Positions 1 to 6,587 of a stretch of 64,000 bases of DNA are shown piece after piece; the stretch's first letter is position 1; each line of letters begins with the position of its first letter. Source of the stretch: Escherichia phage vB_EcoM_G50; the sequence record NC_054917.1; one strand, written 5' to 3'. A program made the translations under genes and the position numbers. Below the pieces are notes generated by a model. The model did no database searches, had not been told where the DNA came from, and worked only from the letters and a program-made list of their open reading frames with translations.

Positions 1-423
1 TATTCGGTAAAGTGAAGGACCCATCGCATATTGCCACTGAGTACGAGGAATAAGAGCAAAAGCGTCCATCTCTGGAATCATAACGCCATCTTTATTTTCA
101 AAATAAGACTCGCAATGGCAATTTCTGAACATCTCATGCTCTACTGGAATCGTATAATAAAACAACTGTAAGTCTTTATTACTAGAATATTTAAATACAC
201 CTAGGTCTTCTAGAAGGTCTGGATTATAATTACTAAAGCCAGTCTCTTCTAAACATTCTCTTTTTGCAGCTTCCAGTGCATTCAAATCAGAACTTTCTAC
301 ACGCCCCTTTGGAATATCCCAACGATGTGCCATCATTCCAGGCTTACGAGAACCAGTAACTCGTCCCATAAATAAATCTTTATCTTCTGTCATAAAGATA
401 ATACCAGCTGATAATGTTTTCAT
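1..423 (-). CDS. nudE: Nudix hydrolase NudE (C-terminus cut by window edge)
   Basis: Reverse-strand ATG at 421-423; translation MKTLSAGIIFMTEDKDL... contains Nudix box GRVESSDLNALEAAKRECLEETGF; frame stays open to position 1. Confidence 0.85.
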   Translation of the reverse strand, partial: MKTLSAGIIFMTEDKDLFMGRVTGSRKPGMMAHRWDIPKGRVESSDLNALEAAKRECLEETGFSNYNPDLLEDLGVFKYSSNKDLQLFYYTIPVEHEMFRNCHCESYFENKDGVMIPEMDAFALIPRTQWQYAMGPSLYRI

Positions 424-908
424 TTTAATTTCCTGCATTCAGTGATAAAATTATTTAAATTTTGAGTATATTTCTTTTCATCAAAAATCTTTTGCTGCCT
501 ACGTAACCGCCATGGCATTTCAATGAACACGCACCATATTCCTGATAGTACTGCTGCTGTAAAAATATTAACAAGTATAATTAAAAGAATCCAATCTTCC
601 GTTCTGCCTACTGGACTTTCTCCAAAGAAGCAAAATACAAATGATGTCACAGGAAAACTAATAATATACCACAGAATCATAATCTTATCTGTGAACCAAT
701 CAGCGTTCGTTAATTTAGCGCGACCATTATGAATACACACGAATTTATCATCTGTTGCAGTAGATGGCTTAACTGGTTGATATCCCATTCTAAACTCCCT
801 AATCAGCAAATTTTTCATATCTTCGGAACAGCCATTCCAGTCAACTCTATCAACTGAAATGCCATCATCCCCGTCATCTAAATCATACCAGCGAGTTTTT
901 AAAATCAT
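420..908 (-). CDS. small predicted 2-TM membrane protein, tandem paralog A
   Basis: ORF track 420..923 begins at TTG; first ATG at 906-908 overlaps upstream stop (ATGA); hydrophobic helices ILWYIISFPVTSFVFCFF and LLIILVNIFTAAVLSGIWCVF; C-terminal tail FITECRKLK. Confidence 0.5.
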   Translation of the reverse strand: MILKTRWYDLDDGDDGISVDRVDWNGCSEDMKNLLIREFRMGYQPVKPSTATDDKFVCIHNGRAKLTNADWFTDKIMILWYIISFPVTSFVFCFFGESPVGRTEDWILLIILVNIFTAAVLSGIWCVFIEMPWRLRRQQKIFDEKKYTQNLNNFITECRKLK

Positions 909-1267
909 TTGATTTTCCTGCAATCACTCACAAACTCTTTCATTGATTCATTTTCAATATAAGACATGTAGCTATTATATTCTTTTAATTGTATTTTGTA
1001 ATCCTTTTTTCTTTGCCAATTTATTTTAAAATTATCATAATGAAAATATAGCATGGTACCAAAGAATGAAAATAATGAAATAATTTTAGTATAGCGAAGT
1101 TCACTCCAAACTTCTATTATATTTACTGTGCCGTCGATGTTTAAAATAAGACAGTCAATTAATAATCCAAAAAGACTACCCGCAAGAGCTGCAGCCAACG
1201 CCACAGCAAAAATTAAAAATGACTCAGGAAGCGAATATTTGACTTTATTTAGTTTTGGCTTTTGCAT
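905..1267 (-). CDS. small predicted 2-TM membrane protein, tandem paralog B
   Basis: ATG start; helices FLIFAVALAAALAGSLFGLLIDCLIL and IISLFSFFGTMLYF; C-terminal tail EFVSDCRKIK; stop overlaps next start. Confidence 0.5.
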   Translation of the reverse strand: MQKPKLNKVKYSLPESFLIFAVALAAALAGSLFGLLIDCLILNIDGTVNIIEVWSELRYTKIISLFSFFGTMLYFHYDNFKINWQRKKDYKIQLKEYNSYMSYIENESMKEFVSDCRKIK

Positions 1268-1641
1268 CGTGATTCCTTAACAAATTTCATAATTTCATCA
1301 AATTCATACGCAGCAAGTTTAAGCTGATGTTCCTTTTTAATCTTTTTACACTGTGCTTTCCAATCACGTACGCGTTTACGATAATGCCTTCCTTGATACC
1401 AGTATCCTACCCAATTTACAGGTACTAATAAAAGTGGAACTATTAATGGAAGAATTAGCATTAACACAAGTATTTCGCCAGAATCAATATCAGTCATAAC
1501 ATCTAAAACACCTCCAATAATCAATAGAATTACAAATGATATGAGTATAACAGGACCTATTAATACATCAGTAGGAATTAGCTGGCGCTTTAATTCATAC
1601 TTCAAAGGTTTACTTGGAAGGTATAGTGATGGCTTTGACAT
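1249..1641 (-). CDS. small predicted 2-TM membrane protein, tandem paralog C
   Basis: ORF track 1249..1662 begins at TTG; first ATG at 1639-1641 (MSKPSLYLP...); helices LIGPVILISFVILLIIGGVLDV and ILVLMLILPLIVPLLLVPV; C-terminal tail KFVKESRCK. Confidence 0.5.
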   Translation of the reverse strand: MSKPSLYLPSKPLKYELKRQLIPTDVLIGPVILISFVILLIIGGVLDVMTDIDSGEILVLMLILPLIVPLLLVPVNWVGYWYQGRHYRKRVRDWKAQCKKIKKEHQLKLAAYEFDEIMKFVKESRCKSQN

Positions 1642-2218
1642 ATTCTCTACATTCCTTAACAAATTTTTCTAGTAATAAATCACTTTCAAAATTAGGATTT
1701 TCCACTAATTTATCAAAAAGATCATCAACAATATTCAAGATATTTCTTTTACTAAGAATACGTTTATTTTCATGCTTCGTTTCAGAATCAACTATAAGAG
1801 TAAAGAAATATTTCTTTCCCTGAAATTTTACTGTAGTATCAATATAGAATAAATTTGACTTTTGTAAGTTACGTTTAAACCATGCGTCACTTAAACTATA
1901 AACACCGAGATAATCAAAATCGTCGTTTAAATAACAAACTGTCCATTCAGGAGAAATGAAATCAGTAAATTCAACATCAAAATCACATGTCAATAAATGA
2001 ATTGATTCAATATTGTTAATAAGTATTCCAGGACGTATTAAAGACTTTTTACCTCTGGAAAATCTTCCAGAAAGACTTTCATCAGTTTCATATGAAGAAC
2101 CCCAATAATAATTACGTCCTTCTGCCATACGTTTAAGAGCATTTAGTAATTGATCTGGAACATCAACCTGTCTTTGGAACTCTTCAAACATTGAATTGAA
2201 ATCACTTTGCATTTTCAT
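1610..2218 (-). CDS. hypothetical protein (202 aa) with the same C-terminal tail motif
   Basis: Long ORF with SD GGAGTAAATAGGAATGAAAATG upstream; C-terminus EKFVKECREY matches tail of the three downstream membrane ORFs. Confidence 0.55.
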   Translation of the reverse strand: MKMQSDFNSMFEEFQRQVDVPDQLLNALKRMAEGRNYYWGSSYETDESLSGRFSRGKKSLIRPGILINNIESIHLLTCDFDVEFTDFISPEWTVCYLNDDFDYLGVYSLSDAWFKRNLQKSNLFYIDTTVKFQGKKYFFTLIVDSETKHENKRILSKRNILNIVDDLFDKLVENPNFESDLLLEKFVKECREYVKAITIPSK

Positions 2219-2239
2219 TCCTATTTACTCCAAGTAATA

Positions 2240-2253
2240 GGGGCCGAAGCCCC
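2240..2253. terminator. GC-rich stem-loop GGGGCCGAAGCCCC
   Basis: Perfect hairpin GGGGC-CGAA-GCCCC between ORF 2260..2853 and ORF 1610..2218. Confidence 0.5.
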
Positions 2254-2259
2254 TTATCA

Positions 2260-2853
2260 TTATTTCAGAGAATTAATGTATTCCTGAACATCGGCAGAAG
2301 TAGTTTCAACCCCAGAAATATTACCGTTAAAGGTTTCAACTCGAGCAAGGGTATCTTCAATATCAACCTTAGTCAGTGCTGCAATTTCAACTACATCATC
2401 AGCAGTACTAATTCCAAGGGCATTTGCCGCACGAGTTTCACGGATATATTCCAATTTAACTGCAAGTTCTTGGCGAGCATCATCTAACTCAACTACTTTC
2501 TTAGCGATTTCAATTCGCATTTCGGCATAACCGTCAGCCTTAGTAGTCAACTGCTCAGCTGTTCGACGATATAGTAAACCAAGTTTAGCATGCATTGTTA
2601 CATCTTGACCTTCGGAAAGAAGCTTGCGAATTTCACGCTCTTTTGATTCGGCCTGTTTATTCTTTTCAATAACAAGTTCACGAATACGTTTTTCTTCATT
2701 AATAGATTTAATAGAAGCAGTTTTTAGATCTTTAATTTTATCAAGTAGTTTTGCTGCTGCAGCGGTATATTGTTCTTCAACAGATAGATTTTTAGCCATA
2801 GCAGAACCAAGTTTAGTGCGAATAAAATCAACAATTTTCTTCAGTGTGTTCAT
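2260..2853 (-). CDS. coiled-coil protein, possibly PspA/IM30-like (197 aa)
   Basis: Long ORF with heptad-like charged/hydrophobic pattern ([31 protein letters not shown]); family assignment is a weak guess. Confidence 0.5.
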
Positions 2854-2899
2854 AGTATTTCCTTAGGTTAATTAAGATTTAAAATCCATGAGAGTATTA

Positions 2900-3073
2900 T
2901 ACTCCGGATAGTTTGTAAACTATTTCAACATCGCCTTTTGCTGCTTTATAACCTTCAGCCCAAGATACAACCGAGTTTTTATCTGAAGATTCAAATTCTG
3001 GCATTGGACTTTCATCAATGTTCACACAGTATGTTTCTTCATTTTCGTCAAACCAAATAGTTAAAGTAGTCAT
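2900..3073 (-). CDS. small hypothetical protein (~57 aa)
   Basis: ATG at 3071-3073 preceded by GGAGAAATAAATG; acidic product MTTLTIWFDENEETYCVNIDES...; below the ORF-track size cutoff. Confidence 0.3.
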
Positions 3074-3141: not shown

Positions 3142-3417
3142 TTATTTCATATTATTGAAATATTCTTCTGCGATTTCATCGTTATCGTGGTAAACTTTAG
3201 AAGACAGTTTAACATAACCTTCAGCAGTGAACATATTAATCACAACTTTTACAGTATACCACTGACCGTCTTCATTACCCATTACTGCGTAAGTTTCAAA
3301 CATCAGATGGTCAGGACCGATAACTTTAATATCATTCACTGTACGACCGAAATCTTCTGAAACGCATTTCATAAAGAAGTTGAACAGTTCGCCGTAATTA
3401 TCCATTTCATTCTCCAA
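3142..3417 (-). CDS. hypothetical protein (91 aa)
   Basis: ORF with early-promoter-like module immediately upstream. Confidence 0.5.
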   Translation of the reverse strand: MENEMDNYGELFNFFMKCVSEDFGRTVNDIKVIGPDHLMFETYAVMGNEDGQWYTVKVVINMFTAEGYVKLSSKVYHDNDEIAEEYFNNMK

Positions 3418-3644: not shown

Positions 3645-4208
3645 TTATTTATCTAGTTTAGTTATTATAGCTTCTACGGCAGCTTTTAGCTTAGATGCGG
3701 TGTTAATACGATTTTTAATTTCAGTATACGCATCGCCAAGAACATCAAGGCTATCAGAATAAACACTTACACTATTGCGTTCGCTATTTGAAATAGAACC
3801 TTTAGTTTTACGATCAAAATCGGTGTACACGTCTTGAAGATCACGCGCTGCCTTCTTTGCATCATCCAATGCATCAAGAGCTTTATTCAAAGCATTAACG
3901 TATTTTTTAGTGTCGAACATATTCTTAGAAATTTTAGCAGGTGCACGTTCAGGAGTAGCTAATACAGATTTAGGAACCTGAGCGCCAGATGCCAATTTCT
4001 TAGAAATTTTGAAAAACGCTTTATTGAATTTATTTTCTTGACTCATCGTAAAAGAACTATTATCGATGTTGTACATTTCAATAGCTTTAGCTTTCCACTT
4101 AAGAAAATCGCCGCGGTCTTTTGGGTCCAAGTGGAAAAATACTTTAGTAAGATCTGCTTCAGATGGTAATTTTGCTGCTTCGGTTAAAAATTCGGCATAG
4201 GTTTTCAT
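3645..4208 (-). CDS. internal-protein-like head protein (IPIII-like, 187 aa)
   Basis: N-terminus MKTYAEFLTEA matches recalled T4 internal-protein capsid-targeting leader with L-x-E gp21 cleavage site; lysine-rich. Confidence 0.6.
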   Translation of the reverse strand: MKTYAEFLTEAAKLPSEADLTKVFFHLDPKDRGDFLKWKAKAIEMYNIDNSSFTMSQENKFNKAFFKISKKLASGAQVPKSVLATPERAPAKISKNMFDTKKYVNALNKALDALDDAKKAARDLQDVYTDFDRKTKGSISNSERNSVSVYSDSLDVLGDAYTEIKNRINTASKLKAAVEAIITKLDK

Positions 4209-4332: not shown

Positions 4333-4806
4333 TTATTTGATTTGTTTAGCAGACCAAATGCGGTCTTTGATGATTTTTTGAATGTCTTCAACATACTCTA
4401 GGTCATGAGCATGTGGGTTATCTTTGAAACTATAAGCACGAGCTAGTTTTTGGCCTTCAGTTTTGATTACTAAAAGCTCTTTAAGGATAGCTTCATATTT
4501 AGCGATAATTCCTTTAACAATATTTTTTTCTTGTGCAGCTTTAGGATCTGCTTTAGGAGCAGGTTTACCCGAAGCCTTTGCAAAAGCAGCACCAGTAGCA
4601 ACTAAACTTTTCCAGGCCATACTAACCGCATTTCCTGTAAATCCTTCTGCTTTCATGTCGCGAGCAAACTGGAATCGTGATTCGTCAGAAGCATCTTTAT
4701 AGGAATATTTACCCGCTGCAATGGCTGCTTTTGCGACAGCTTGAATTTCGGTGCTAGATGCTTCATTTAACACCGCTTCATTTAAAAATTGAGCATATGA
4801 TTTCAT
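4333..4806 (-). CDS. internal-protein-like head protein (IPII-like, 157 aa)
   Basis: N-terminus MKSYAQFLNEA (capsid-targeting-like leader, L-x-E site); late promoter TATAAATA just upstream. Confidence 0.6.
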   Translation of the reverse strand: MKSYAQFLNEAVLNEASSTEIQAVAKAAIAAGKYSYKDASDESRFQFARDMKAEGFTGNAVSMAWKSLVATGAAFAKASGKPAPKADPKAAQEKNIVKGIIAKYEAILKELLVIKTEGQKLARAYSFKDNPHAHDLEYVEDIQKIIKDRIWSAKQIK

Positions 4807-5565: not shown

Positions 5566-5641
5566 GGTCGAGGCAGTAGGGATCGAACCTACGACCTAGG
5601 ACTTAGAAGGTCCTTGCTCTTCCTTCTGAGCTATGCCCCGT
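5566..5641 (-). tRNA. tRNA-Arg (UCU)
   Basis: Cloverleaf; acceptor CGGGGCA/TGCCTCG; anticodon loop CTTCTAA; T-loop GGTTCGATCC; CCA encoded. Confidence 0.85.
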
Positions 5642-5645
5642 AATT

Positions 5646-5721
5646 GGGGTGACCGATGGGAGTCGAACCCATGACTACGAGAATCACAATCTTGAGTTCT
5701 ACCAACTGAACTACGGCCACA
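5646..5721 (-). tRNA. tRNA-His (GUG), tentative
   Basis: Acceptor GTGGCCG/CGGTCAC, discriminator C, CCA encoded; anticodon loop TTGTGAT; one A-C mismatch in anticodon stem; no encoded G-1. Confidence 0.6.
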
Positions 5722-5835
5722 TTAATACCTACTCCAACAATCAAGATGTCTTCACACGAAATTAAGAGAAGAGTGATCAGTTCAACCCCGATAATCGCGT
5801 CAAGTAGATATTAATGTGACAACTGTCACAAATTT
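5722..5835 (-). ncRNA. candidate small RNA in tRNA-cluster gap
   Basis: 113-nt gap between tRNA-Asn and tRNA-His; contains palindrome GTGACAGTTGTCAC; no ORF; no folding done. Confidence 0.2.
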
Positions 5836-5910
5836 GGCGGACGTGATAGGATTCGAACCTATAACCAATCGCTTAACAGGCGATCGCTCTGCCATTGAGC
5901 TACACATCCA
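5836..5910 (-). tRNA. tRNA-Asn (GUU)
   Basis: Acceptor GGATGTG/CACGTCC; anticodon loop CTGTTAA; T-arm ATAGGTTCGAATCCTAT; CCA encoded. Confidence 0.8.
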
Positions 5911-5914
5911 AATT

Positions 5915-6001
5915 GGTGGGGAGTGATGGAGTCGAACCACCCGAGTCGCAATGACAATGGATTTACAGTCCACACCGCTACCTCTACGGGATAACTCCCC
6001 T
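5915..6001 (-). tRNA. tRNA-Tyr (GUA), long variable arm
   Basis: 87 nt; acceptor GGGGAGT/ACTCCCC; anticodon stem-loop GTGGA-CTGTAAA-TCCAT; CCA encoded. Confidence 0.8.
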
Positions 6002-6014
6002 TAATTCTTAATTT

Positions 6015-6089
6015 GGTGGCCCTGGGTGGAATTGAACCACCATCTGGCGATTATGAGTCGCTTGCTTGAACCTTCCAGCTACAGGGCCT
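6015..6089 (-). tRNA. tRNA with CAU anticodon (Ile2 or Met)
   Basis: Acceptor GGCCCTG/CAGGGCC; anticodon loop CTCATAA; T-arm GTGGTTCAATTCCAC; CCA encoded. Confidence 0.75.
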
Positions 6090-6090
6090 T

Positions 6091-6166
6091 GGTGCTGATT
6101 GACGGAATCGAACCGCCGACCTTCTCATTACAAGTGAGTTGCTCTACCTACTAAGCTAAATCAGCA
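6091..6166 (-). tRNA. tRNA-Thr (UGU)
   Basis: GCTGATTTAGCTTAGTAGGTAGAGCAACTCACTTGTAATGAG...; anticodon loop CTTGTAA; CCA encoded. Confidence 0.9.
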
Positions 6167-6171
6167 AAACT

Positions 6172-6261
6172 GGCGGAGGCGATAGGATTTGAACCTATGA
6201 GTCGCCGGAGCGACTGCCGGTTTTCAAGACCGGTGCATTAAACCACTCTGCCACGCCTCCA
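6172..6261 (-). tRNA. tRNA-Ser (UGA), long variable arm
   Basis: 90 nt; acceptor GGAGGCG/CGCCTCC; anticodon stem-loop CCGGT-CTTGAAA-ACCGG; CCA encoded. Confidence 0.85.
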
Positions 6262-6263
6262 GT

Positions 6264-6337
6264 CTCCATACAAGGATTTGAACCTTGGACCTCCTGATCC
6301 CAAATCAGGCGCTCTACCAAACTGAGCTACACGGAGT
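6264..6337 (-). tRNA. tRNA-Pro (UGG), no encoded CCA
   Basis: Acceptor CTCCGTG/TATGGAG; anticodon stem-loop CCTGA-TTTGGGA-TCAGG; 2 nt from tRNA-Ser. Confidence 0.8.
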
Positions 6338-6346
6338 AAATTAAAT

Positions 6347-6421
<75 letters not shown>

Positions 6422-6426
6422 AATTT

Positions 6427-6513
6427 GGTGCGAGAAGTGGGACTCGAACCCACAAGGAAATCATTCCGCAGCATTTTAAGTGCTGTGCCTTTACCAATTT
6501 GACCATTCTCGCG
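6427..6513 (-). tRNA. tRNA-Leu (UAA), long variable arm
   Basis: 87 nt; acceptor GCGAGAA/TTCTCGC; anticodon stem-loop CAGCA-CTTAAAA-TGCTG; CCA encoded. Confidence 0.85.
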
Positions 6514-6514
6514 C

Positions 6515-6587
6515 TGGGAATAAAGGACTCGAACCTTTGCATCCTGGAATCAAAATCCAGTGCCTTACCAACTTGGCTAATTCCCAA
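6515..6587 (-). tRNA. tRNA-Gln (UUG), no encoded CCA
   Basis: Acceptor TGGGAAT/ATTCCCA; anticodon stem-loop CTGGA-TTTTGAT-TCCAG; 1 nt from tRNA-Leu. Confidence 0.8.

Follow-up and report, generated by a model that had tools for sequence, protein, structure and literature searches.

What do four small, overlapping genes of a T4-type phage share when their products all end alike, and what would such an ending be for? The question is raised by the stretch between e.6 and nudE in a 64,000-nucleotide segment of Escherichia phage vB_EcoM_G50 (NC_054917.1), the whole of which is referred to here as the window. The window belongs to a Tequatrovirus; over bases 300-2900 it has 99.7% identity with Escherichia phage REP4, and 641 phage records match this part. 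Gene identities were assigned by comparison with the annotated T4 record and with PHROG profiles. The open reading frames (ORFs) in question are orthologues of T4 e.5, e.4, e.3 and full-length e.2, and the gene order between e.6 and nudE is that of T4 and REP4. The initial annotation had located them in the slot that T4 fills with e.2-e.8, and they are e.2-e.5 themselves. The sizes of e.3, e.4 and e.5 are as in T4, and the e.3 and e.4 proteins are 90% identical to those of T4, where e.2-e.5 are annotated as hypothetical and e.2-e.4 as 'predicted membrane proteins'.

A common C-terminal tail in four consecutive genes

The C-termini of e.5, e.4, e.3 and e.2 all read F-[IV]-x-[ED]-[CS]-R. Up to the stop codon, e.5 ends in ...LLLEKFVKECREYVKAITIPSK (shorter excerpt ...EKFVKECREYVKAITIPSK), e.4 in ...EIMKFVKESRCKSQN (...MKFVKESRCKSQN), e.3 in ...SMKEFVSDCRKIK (...KEFVSDCRKIK) and e.2 in ...NLNNFITECRKLK (...NNFITECRKLK). 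The genes, their transmembrane (TM) segments and their tail motifs are located as follows.

2260-2853, minus strand: e.6, 197 amino acids, phrog_1203, all-helical, directly upstream of the tail-bearing genes
1610-2218, minus strand: e.5 orthologue, 202 amino acids, soluble, ending in the tail helix; phrog_2607, E 9.2e-109, full length; the start may instead be the ATG at 2212
1646-1672, minus strand: e.5 tail motif LEKFVKECR (L183-R191), within a helix (180-196) predicted by AlphaFold2 (AF2) with low confidence
1249-1641, minus strand: e.4 orthologue, 130 amino acids, 2-TM hairpin with a basic, predicted cytoplasmic tail; phrog_2604, E 5.8e-71, full length
1495-1563 and 1408-1473, minus strand: TM1 and TM2 of e.4 (Kyte-Doolittle profile)
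1267-1293, minus strand: e.4 tail motif IMKFVKESR, with Ser in place of Cys and a Cys after the Arg
905-1267, minus strand: e.3 orthologue, 120 amino acids, 2-TM hairpin with a basic tail; phrog_2330, E 3.9e-60, full length
1139-1219 and 1037-1084, minus strand: TM1 and the weaker TM2 of e.3 (hydrophobicity)
917-943, minus strand: e.3 tail motif MKEFVSDCR
420-908, minus strand: full-length e.2, 162 amino acids; phrog_2203, E 1.5e-79, full length
621-683 and 519-596, minus strand: TM segments of e.2, placed between an N-terminal soluble domain of about 75 amino acids and a basic tail
432-458, minus strand: e.2 tail motif LNNFITECR, containing TGCAGGAAA, which is the crossover site in T2/RB32 and the Shine-Dalgarno sequence of nudE
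1-423, minus strand: 5′ part of nudE (Nudix hydrolase), whose start overlaps the e.2 stop (ATGA)

The motif is confined to these four ends. F[VIL]x[ED][CS]R is found four times in the six-frame translation of the window, each time at one of these C-termini, as compared with a mean of 0.68 and a maximum of 3 in 100 shuffles. For the broader pattern [FW][IV]xxC[RK], required to lie close to the end of an ORF of 80 codons or more, the expectation is 0.01 per shuffle. A scan of T4, covering 1-74 kb and 128-169 kb (the equivalent of the remainder is covered by the window), showed the motif close to the ends of three ORFs only, those of e.5, e.3 and (with Ser) e.4. The initial annotation was thus right that four minus-strand ORFs share a conserved 3′ end at these positions, which encodes a conserved C-terminal peptide. 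It had also described one near-identical block ending all four genes. Here the peptide is indeed common to all, but the DNA forms two pairs, and e.5 and e.4 extend 11 and 5 codons, respectively, beyond the motif Arg. The tail finding is real, and it is more general than the initial annotation could see.

No published function for T4 e.2-e.5 was found in the literature searched by gene name, nor was any description of the shared tail. Sequence searches of the e.2-e.6 proteins against Pfam, NCBIfam, PADLOC and the PDB gave nothing significant. For e.5, profile and sequence searches against the PDB and Pfam yielded chance-level matches alone. The genes as such are already catalogued. What seems not to have been described before is the tail common to them, how it is distributed over the phage family, how strictly it is linked to e.6, and that e.6 may be of PspA/ESCRT-III nature.

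The protein bodies differ

Three of the four products had been described as paralogous proteins with two hydrophobic helices. Two clear helices are present in e.4 and e.2, one strong and one weak in e.3, and none in e.5. The paralogy stands for e.3 and e.4, whose full-length profiles align with Prob 97% and E 1e-10 over 118 columns in hhalign and which have the N-terminus MxKPxL in common. Without their tails the two still match at Prob 31% and E 5e-4, as against E 0.05 in the reversed-sequence control. It does not stand for e.2: both e.2 and e.5 match the others over only 7-14 columns, all in the tail, and the e.2 body compared with e.3/e.4 is at control level. Furthermore, body-only profile comparisons of nine TM families all remained at the reversed-sequence control level except for e.3/e.4. 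On this evidence only e.3 and e.4 are demonstrable paralogues, and what all four have in common is best read as a module, not a whole protein.

Anatomy and topology of the tail

The consensus of 84 distinct tails is [KQR]-E-[ESD]-[LIV]-E-[EDN]-F-[IV]-K-E-C-R-[KG]-K; a shorter form of it is [ED]-h-[ED]-x-F-[IV]-K-E-C-[RK]. It is predicted to form a short amphipathic helix with positions -3, 0, +1 and +4 on the hydrophobic face, followed by a basic residue, and the spacing of the hydrophobic positions is constant in all carriers. All 56 soluble carriers have Cys at position +4. Among 80 membrane carriers this position is Cys in 49, Val in 10, Ile in 9, Met in 6 and Ser in 6; V, I, M or S is found there in the e.4-type proteins of other genera. 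Such replacements argue for a small buried hydrophobic contact at +4 and not for an obligate metal ligand or a reactive thiol. The Cys as a metal ligand or reactive site was considered as a candidate and is weakened by the 31 of 80 TM carriers without it. Between the end of the motif and the stop codon lie 0-11 residues in membrane carriers and 2-15 in soluble carriers, and the sequence of these residues varies.

Counts of Lys plus Arg are 5 in the N-terminus, 0 in the loop and 15 in the tail of e.4, and 4, 2 and 10 in the same parts of e.3; e.2 has 1 in the loop and 9 in the tail. This distribution indicates N-in/C-in hairpins, and hence cytoplasmic tails. The soluble e.5 would also be in the cytoplasm.

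Conservation of amino acids with free codon choice

Does the conservation lie in the peptide or in the DNA beneath it? The evidence points to the protein level. A nucleotide-level element as the primary feature, either one of translation initiation and coupling or a translated recombination junction of a cassette, would fit the two near-identical DNA pairs in the window: 420-449 and 905-934 (e.2 and e.3 ends) are 80% identical over 30 nucleotides (nt), and 1272-1287 and 1651-1666 (e.4 and e.5 ends) agree at every one of 16 nt. It would also fit the precise deletion at the block in T2 and RB32 described below. Nevertheless, the motif Arg codons in the four window genes are AGG, AGG, CGA and AGA, and the register from the Arg codon to the next ATG differs (10, 10, 2 and 7 nt). 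In 97 distinct tail sequences from many phages, Phe is encoded by TTT 60 times and TTC 34 times, Cys by TGT 44 times and TGC 36 times, and Arg by all six codons. Identical amino acids in tails of the same genome have identical codons in 386 cases, with 367 expected from codon usage, which speaks against gene conversion and against a hidden RNA or DNA element. Across genera, the amino acids are kept while the DNA has diverged. The Rfam scan of the window matched only a tRNA cluster (5568-6586) and no family at the junctions, and promoter-like sites are no more frequent than by chance and are absent from the gene junctions. A nucleotide-level element is therefore largely refuted as the primary cause, and we give it very little credence.

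The motif DNA has a second role all the same. Neighbouring genes overlap by 32 (e.5/e.4), 19 (e.4/e.3), 4 (e.3/e.2) and 4 nt (e.2/nudE), and the next gene has its Shine-Dalgarno sequence within the motif, in codons that differ among the genes: AAGGAA (Lys-Glu codons) is placed 6 nt before the e.3 start and AGGAAA (Arg-Lys codons) 6-7 nt before the e.2 and nudE starts. The purine-rich tail codons thus double as the ribosome-binding site of the next, translationally coupled gene, as had been claimed from the block and the overlapping starts. AGA and AGG make up 49% of the Arg codons at the motif as opposed to 17% overall in these loci, an enrichment that fits this double role. Two further ideas were dropped: an RNA element resembling a RegA operator, for which the codon analysis gives no RNA-level constraint, and a resemblance of the tail (F-[IL]-x-E) to the gp21 protease or capsid-targeting sequence.

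Loss and truncation of e.2

Matches covering 80% or more of e.2 are found in 526 phage records. The version in laboratory T4 (L001 5653-5961) is a truncation of 102 amino acids, with -1 and +1 frameshifts and a TAG between them; in the T4T record the broken gene is annotated as e.2a/e.2b. From T2 and RB32 e.2 is precisely missing. There, a hybrid e.3 end, GATTG[C/T]AGGAAATTAAAATGAAAAC (also given as GATTG[C/T]AGGAAATTAAAATG), is fused to the nudE start, so that the order at the junction is e.3 body, shared TGCAGGAAA, e.2 end and nudE start. JS98 and VR7 have e.2 homologues, which identifies the T2/RB32 state as a deletion. To judge from the hybrid junction, e.2 was lost by a crossover within about 10 nt of identity created by the protein motif. 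Recombination at the junction is a by-product of the motif, not the cause of its conservation. The proposal of a cassette family recombining at the conserved junction is accordingly borne out by this deletion, but not as a conserved DNA cassette, given the codon identity at expectation and the shifting distance to the ATG. Separately, the e.3 gene of RB32 (L005 2501-2797) has a frameshift where a poly-A run has grown from A6GG to A13; genuine slippage and a sequencing error are both possible causes.

Distribution of the tail across Straboviridae

The tail is kept as amino acids, with free codon choice, in RB69, VR26, Bp7, IME523, pKp20, ZPAH1, EcS1 and SW69-9. The e.5/e.4/e.3 counterparts of RB69 (Mosigvirus), VR26 (Gaprivervirus) and Bp7 (Dhakavirus) carry FIMECREY, FVKEIRC, FIKECRK, FITECREY, FIKEVRN and FIKECKS. 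In Kanagawa-, Jiaoda-, Ishiguro-, Kagamiyama- and Biquartavirus, a soluble protein ending ...F[IV]xxC[RK]... is encoded right after e.6, followed by 0-5 further small proteins with the same ending.

e.6 itself is found in 1105 phage records and is far commoner than e.2-e.5. With an e.6 profile, 42 loci were retrieved from IMG/VR, giving 53 loci overall. In the 42 IMG/VR loci, 90 of the 485 ORFs downstream of e.6 have the strict motif within their last 26 residues, as compared with 1 of the 448 ORFs upstream. One to six tail ORFs (median 3) are located downstream of e.6 in 46 of the 53 loci, with none upstream in those 46, and in 44 loci the first of them starts at most 120 nt from the e.6 stop. 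The seven exceptional loci are RB43-type phages and incomplete contigs. The set of carriers varies (e.4 is absent in Bp7, and there are 0-6 copies per locus), and phages or loci with a single carrier exist (SW69-9, L040).

BLAST clustering of the proteins after removal of the tail gave about 30 separate bodies. A few are short ORFs and probably chance matches; the others comprise soluble domains of the e.5 type, proteins of the e.2, e.3 and e.4 types, many further 2-TM proteins and several small soluble ones. The number of BLAST-distinct bodies with the tail is at least 20. The e.5-position proteins of different genera are homologous to each other (hhalign Prob 98%, E 2e-13), and an alignment of 15 members from 15 genera, with about 15% identity, retains F186 and C190 as the only invariant residues besides the start Met. 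A word-indexed homologue search started from this alignment found few distant relatives.

A second tandem family with a common C-terminus was seen in RB69 (L003 3731-4526), VR26 (L004 3691-4959), Bp7 (L006 2183-3221) and IME523 (L007 5210-6803). It consists of 3-6 small (65-105 amino acids), acidic, soluble proteins encoded directly after e.3, interleaved with FIxxCR-tailed genes, and ends in W-[VIF]-x-S-S-x-x-C-stop (GAWVSSSAMC, GGWVSSSSEC, TSWVSSSYEC, GFWFNSSMSC, KIWYPSSC). This family is not present in the window.

e.6 as a candidate PspA/ESCRT-III-type scaffold

The AF2 model of e.6, built from 31 homologues with a predicted local distance difference test (pLDDT) score of 73, shows an amphipathic helix (3-18), a long hairpin (25-80/86-145), then short helices and a confident C-terminal helix (186-196). 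The fold of the PspA/IM30 (Vipp1)/ESCRT-III superfamily comprises an N-terminal amphipathic alpha0, a long alpha1/alpha2-3 hairpin, a short alpha4 and a C-terminal alpha5, and its members polymerise into rings or rods and bind membranes. Among the ten best Foldseek matches to this model in the PDB, nine are Vipp1, PspA or archaeal CdvB2, all of the ESCRT-III superfamily, with E from 5e-3 and TM-scores of 0.30-0.47. The Pfam family PspA_IM30 (PF04012) is matched by 7 of the 31 e.6 homologues, all below the gathering score and with a best E of 7e-5; no other Pfam family is matched by more of them, and the window protein itself has no PF04012 or Snf7 match. P0177, a distant member of the e.6 family, reaches E 4.5e-6 and 26.9 bits against a cut-off of 33.9. 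In addition, the e.6 profile is collinear with Vipp1 at E 0.5-1.5, and an RB43-type e.6 homologue is named 'phage shock protein A' in one source. No statement that e.6 is of the PspA/ESCRT-III type was found in the literature searched. On this weak to moderate support, we lean slightly towards e.6 being such a scaffold. Many GenBank records call e.6 a 'host specificity protein', a label for which we found no support.

The C-terminus of e.6 fits a relaxed version of the heptad pattern of the tails. In the window this pattern matches only e.3, e.2 and e.6, and its background is 4 of 302 control ORFs. These control ORFs are all of one family (...EDAKFYVNLIKK at the end), namely an RB69 frd.3 homologue (L003 1489-1716) and its counterparts in L020, L021 and L056; in RB69-type phages the family is located immediately upstream of e.6. 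Conservation along e.6 is nearly flat and points to no particular binding site; it rises slightly only at residues 88-98, close to the turn of the hairpin.

A proposed docking helix for a membrane-scaffold module

What would the tail bind? A tentative but plausible reading, drawn from gene order, conservation and predicted folds, is that it docks e.5, e.4, e.3 and e.2 to e.6. The tail would be a cytoplasmic docking helix coupling its carriers to one common partner, most likely e.6; e.4, e.3 and e.2 would serve as membrane anchors or sensors, and e.5 as the constant soluble partner. Together, e.2-e.6 may make up a dispensable module, adaptable to the host, whose task is to manage the inner membrane of the infected cell. 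Three observations make e.6 the most economical partner: the e.6 gene always has as its neighbour an e.5-type gene whose product keeps the invariant F and C; the carriers of the tail all belong to one block, which is probably co-transcribed; and PspA homologues are known to be recruited by small membrane proteins from the same operon, LiaI for LiaH and PspB/PspC for PspA (PMC9239133). The e.4, e.3 and e.2 proteins may play the same part as LiaI or PspB/PspC.

A more specific and distinctly more doubtful version makes e.6 a phage ESCRT-III/PspA-type scaffold with an 'adaptor code', encoded by T4 and the majority of related Straboviridae. In ESCRT-III proteins and Vipp1, helix alpha5 docks on the hairpin tip of a neighbouring subunit, a contact essential for polymerisation (PMC8281802). 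The LxxF[IV]xxC[RK] helix would mimic alpha5 of the scaffold and plug the partners onto its hairpin tip, so that an e.6 polymer could be anchored, nucleated or capped at the inner membrane. The e.4, e.3 and e.2 proteins, and many others with the tail, would then be host-specific, fast-evolving and interchangeable membrane anchors.

Several results weigh against docking to e.6 and against its relation to PspA. The AF2 models of e.5 and e.6 are of monomers. The argument from gene neighbourhood is confounded by common ancestry within one phage family. The e.6 profile compared with E. coli PspA gives a non-significant hhalign Prob of 1.6%, and an exhaustive HMMER search with the e.6 profile returned 51 clusters and no PspA. 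A hidden Markov model of the tail gives the e.6 C-terminus negative scores, so that e.6 is credited with the heptad pattern only and not with the same motif. RB43-type phages possess e.6 and no tailed membrane proteins, and the motif of their e.5-like protein is internal (FIHSCKKNV followed by about 27 residues). Finally, the 2025 CRISPRi-ART data label T4 e.2-e.6 'Unknown' and 'Not Fit', with knock-downs having no fitness effect on the laboratory host, so that no phenotype anchors the model (PMC11879866 supplement); the main texts of HIDEN-SEQ and CRISPRi-ART do not mention e.2-e.6.

The best-surviving alternative, which corresponds to the view of the initial annotation, is that the tail binds a conserved host protein and e.2-e.5 are independent accessory factors of superinfection exclusion, anti-defence or host takeover. 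It draws on the small membrane proteins in a cluster read as early, on the variable gene set (including e.2 lost in T2/RB32 and truncated in T4), on the dispensability of e.2-e.5 on the laboratory host and on the PHROGs class of e.2 ('moron, auxiliary metabolic gene and host takeover'). On the other hand, e.2-e.5 have no similarity to any PADLOC, Pfam or NCBIfam family, and with hosts from Escherichia to Aeromonas the target would need strong conservation. A host partner also leaves unexplained why tailed genes are found only downstream of e.6 and why e.5, with its invariant F and C, is always beside it. We therefore consider this alternative unlikely, and the strict association of the tailed genes with e.6 and e.5 favours a membrane-scaffold module over exclusion or anti-defence.

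Less probable still is that the tails bind each other, forming a hetero-oligomeric helical bundle that joins e.5, e.4, e.3 and e.2 into a membrane complex independent of e.6. Such a bundle would account for a heptad-like amphipathic pattern on several co-expressed, translationally coupled proteins and for the equal residue spacing of the hydrophobic positions in all carriers. The helix is short, however, with about 9-12 residues of conserved face, and in the single-carrier cases the invariant F and C of a lone carrier argue for a partner other than a second tail.

That the tail is a C-terminal degron timing protein abundance is as improbable as the nucleotide-level element: the tail is near the C-terminus and common to co-expressed proteins, but it ends 0-15 variable residues before the actual C-terminus while known C-terminal degrons generally need the extreme terminus, and the amphipathic helix, whose buried face is conserved, has the look of a binding interface.

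Comparison with known systems and significance

The proposed docking of tailed proteins to e.6 has its closest counterparts in the Psp (E. coli pspABCD) and Lia (B. subtilis LiaH-LiaI) systems. There too, the gene for a helical-hairpin protein comes first and is followed by genes for small inner-membrane proteins, and the hairpin protein has an N-terminal amphipathic helix, as is also predicted for e.6. By contrast, e.2-e.6 are phage-encoded, the link between e.6 and PspA is weak and e.5 is an additional obligatory soluble partner. We know of no common C-terminal motif on the partners of Psp proteins, and e.2-e.4 gave no PspB, PspC or LiaI-LiaF-TM domain in Pfam/NCBIfam at E up to 1. Some GenBank records (e.g. 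OP856590, OP870144, OQ446694) call e.3 or e.4 a 'sulfurtransferase', a name without Pfam/NCBIfam support here. A rhodanese sulfurtransferase, PspE, is encoded in the psp operon of E. coli; on e.3/e.4 the label is probably an annotation artefact.

With ESCRT-III alpha5 and the MIT-interacting motifs (MIM) the tail has in common a short C-terminal amphipathic helix with hydrophobic residues at i, i+4 and i+7 and a basic residue at i+8. The MIM1 consensus, (D/E)xxLxxRLxxL(K/R), binds the MIT domain. The tail differs from this consensus in having F or Y and not R at position 3 and Cys in place of the last Leu, and it differs from ESCRT-III in that the helix is on partner proteins and not only on the scaffold. 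The resemblance is no more than a lead. No gene for an MIT-domain protein or an AAA ATPase was noticed in the loci, no search having been aimed at them.

Mobile regulatory cassettes consisting of promoter-early stem-loops reportedly shuffle small ORFs in hyperplastic regions of T4-type genomes (Arbiol et al. 2010). The e.2-e.5 array is similar in being a variable set of small accessory ORFs in a plastic T4-type region, with short boundary repeats able to mediate gain and loss. Unlike such cassettes, its repeat is coding and kept as amino acids, and the junctions lack a promoter and stem-loop. The superinfection-exclusion proteins Imm and Sp of T4 are, like e.2-e.4, small membrane proteins without which the phage manages in the laboratory; there is no sequence relationship, and neither gene came up in the tail-motif scan of T4. 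For known defence or exclusion proteins, the five proteins e.2-e.6 had no PADLOC match and no relevant Pfam or PHROG match.

T4 is the best-studied lytic phage, and about half of its genes are without function. Here one 9-residue tail links a run of five T4 genes with dozens of small, otherwise unrelated proteins from ten or more genera. Orphan ORFs become one testable module, for which the F, C and R of the tail offer an exact mutational handle. If e.6 is a scaffold to which the tails dock, the module would be a phage's own version of the bacterial phage-shock system and could help to explain how T4 maintains an energised host inner membrane through infection and lysis inhibition, or when membrane-targeting abortive-infection defences are set off by the host. 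Should the adaptor version be true, it would be a viral system of membrane maintenance or remodelling. Even with a different partner, the tail motif is a useful annotation marker for this gene class.

Neighbouring features of the window

Beyond the tailed genes, the following elements were recorded around and upstream of e.6.

2239-2254, minus strand: GGGGC-UUCG-GCCCC hairpin between e.6 and e.5, with a possible role in mRNA processing, mRNA stability or partial termination
2897-3073, minus strand: ORF of 58 amino acids in the e.7 slot, differing from that of T4
3138-3110, minus strand: sigma-70-type promoter-like site with extended -10 TG, before the 58-amino-acid ORF
3142-3417, minus strand: e.8-like ORF
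3477-3449, minus strand: sigma-70-type promoter-like site with extended -10 TG, before the e.8-like ORF
3645-4208, minus strand: ORF for a protein beginning MKTYAEFLTEA
4333-4806, minus strand: ORF for a protein beginning MKSYAQFLNEA
5568-6586, minus strand: cluster of 11 tRNA genes (Rfam)

The two promoter-like sites may drive the whole block from e.8 to e. The starts MKTYAEFLTEA and MKSYAQFLNEA resemble the capsid-targeting sequence of T4 internal proteins, where cleavage follows L/I-x-E, and the two products are probably alternative internal proteins encoded between e.8 and the tRNA cluster. In the region corresponding to this cluster, T4 has 8 annotated tRNA genes.

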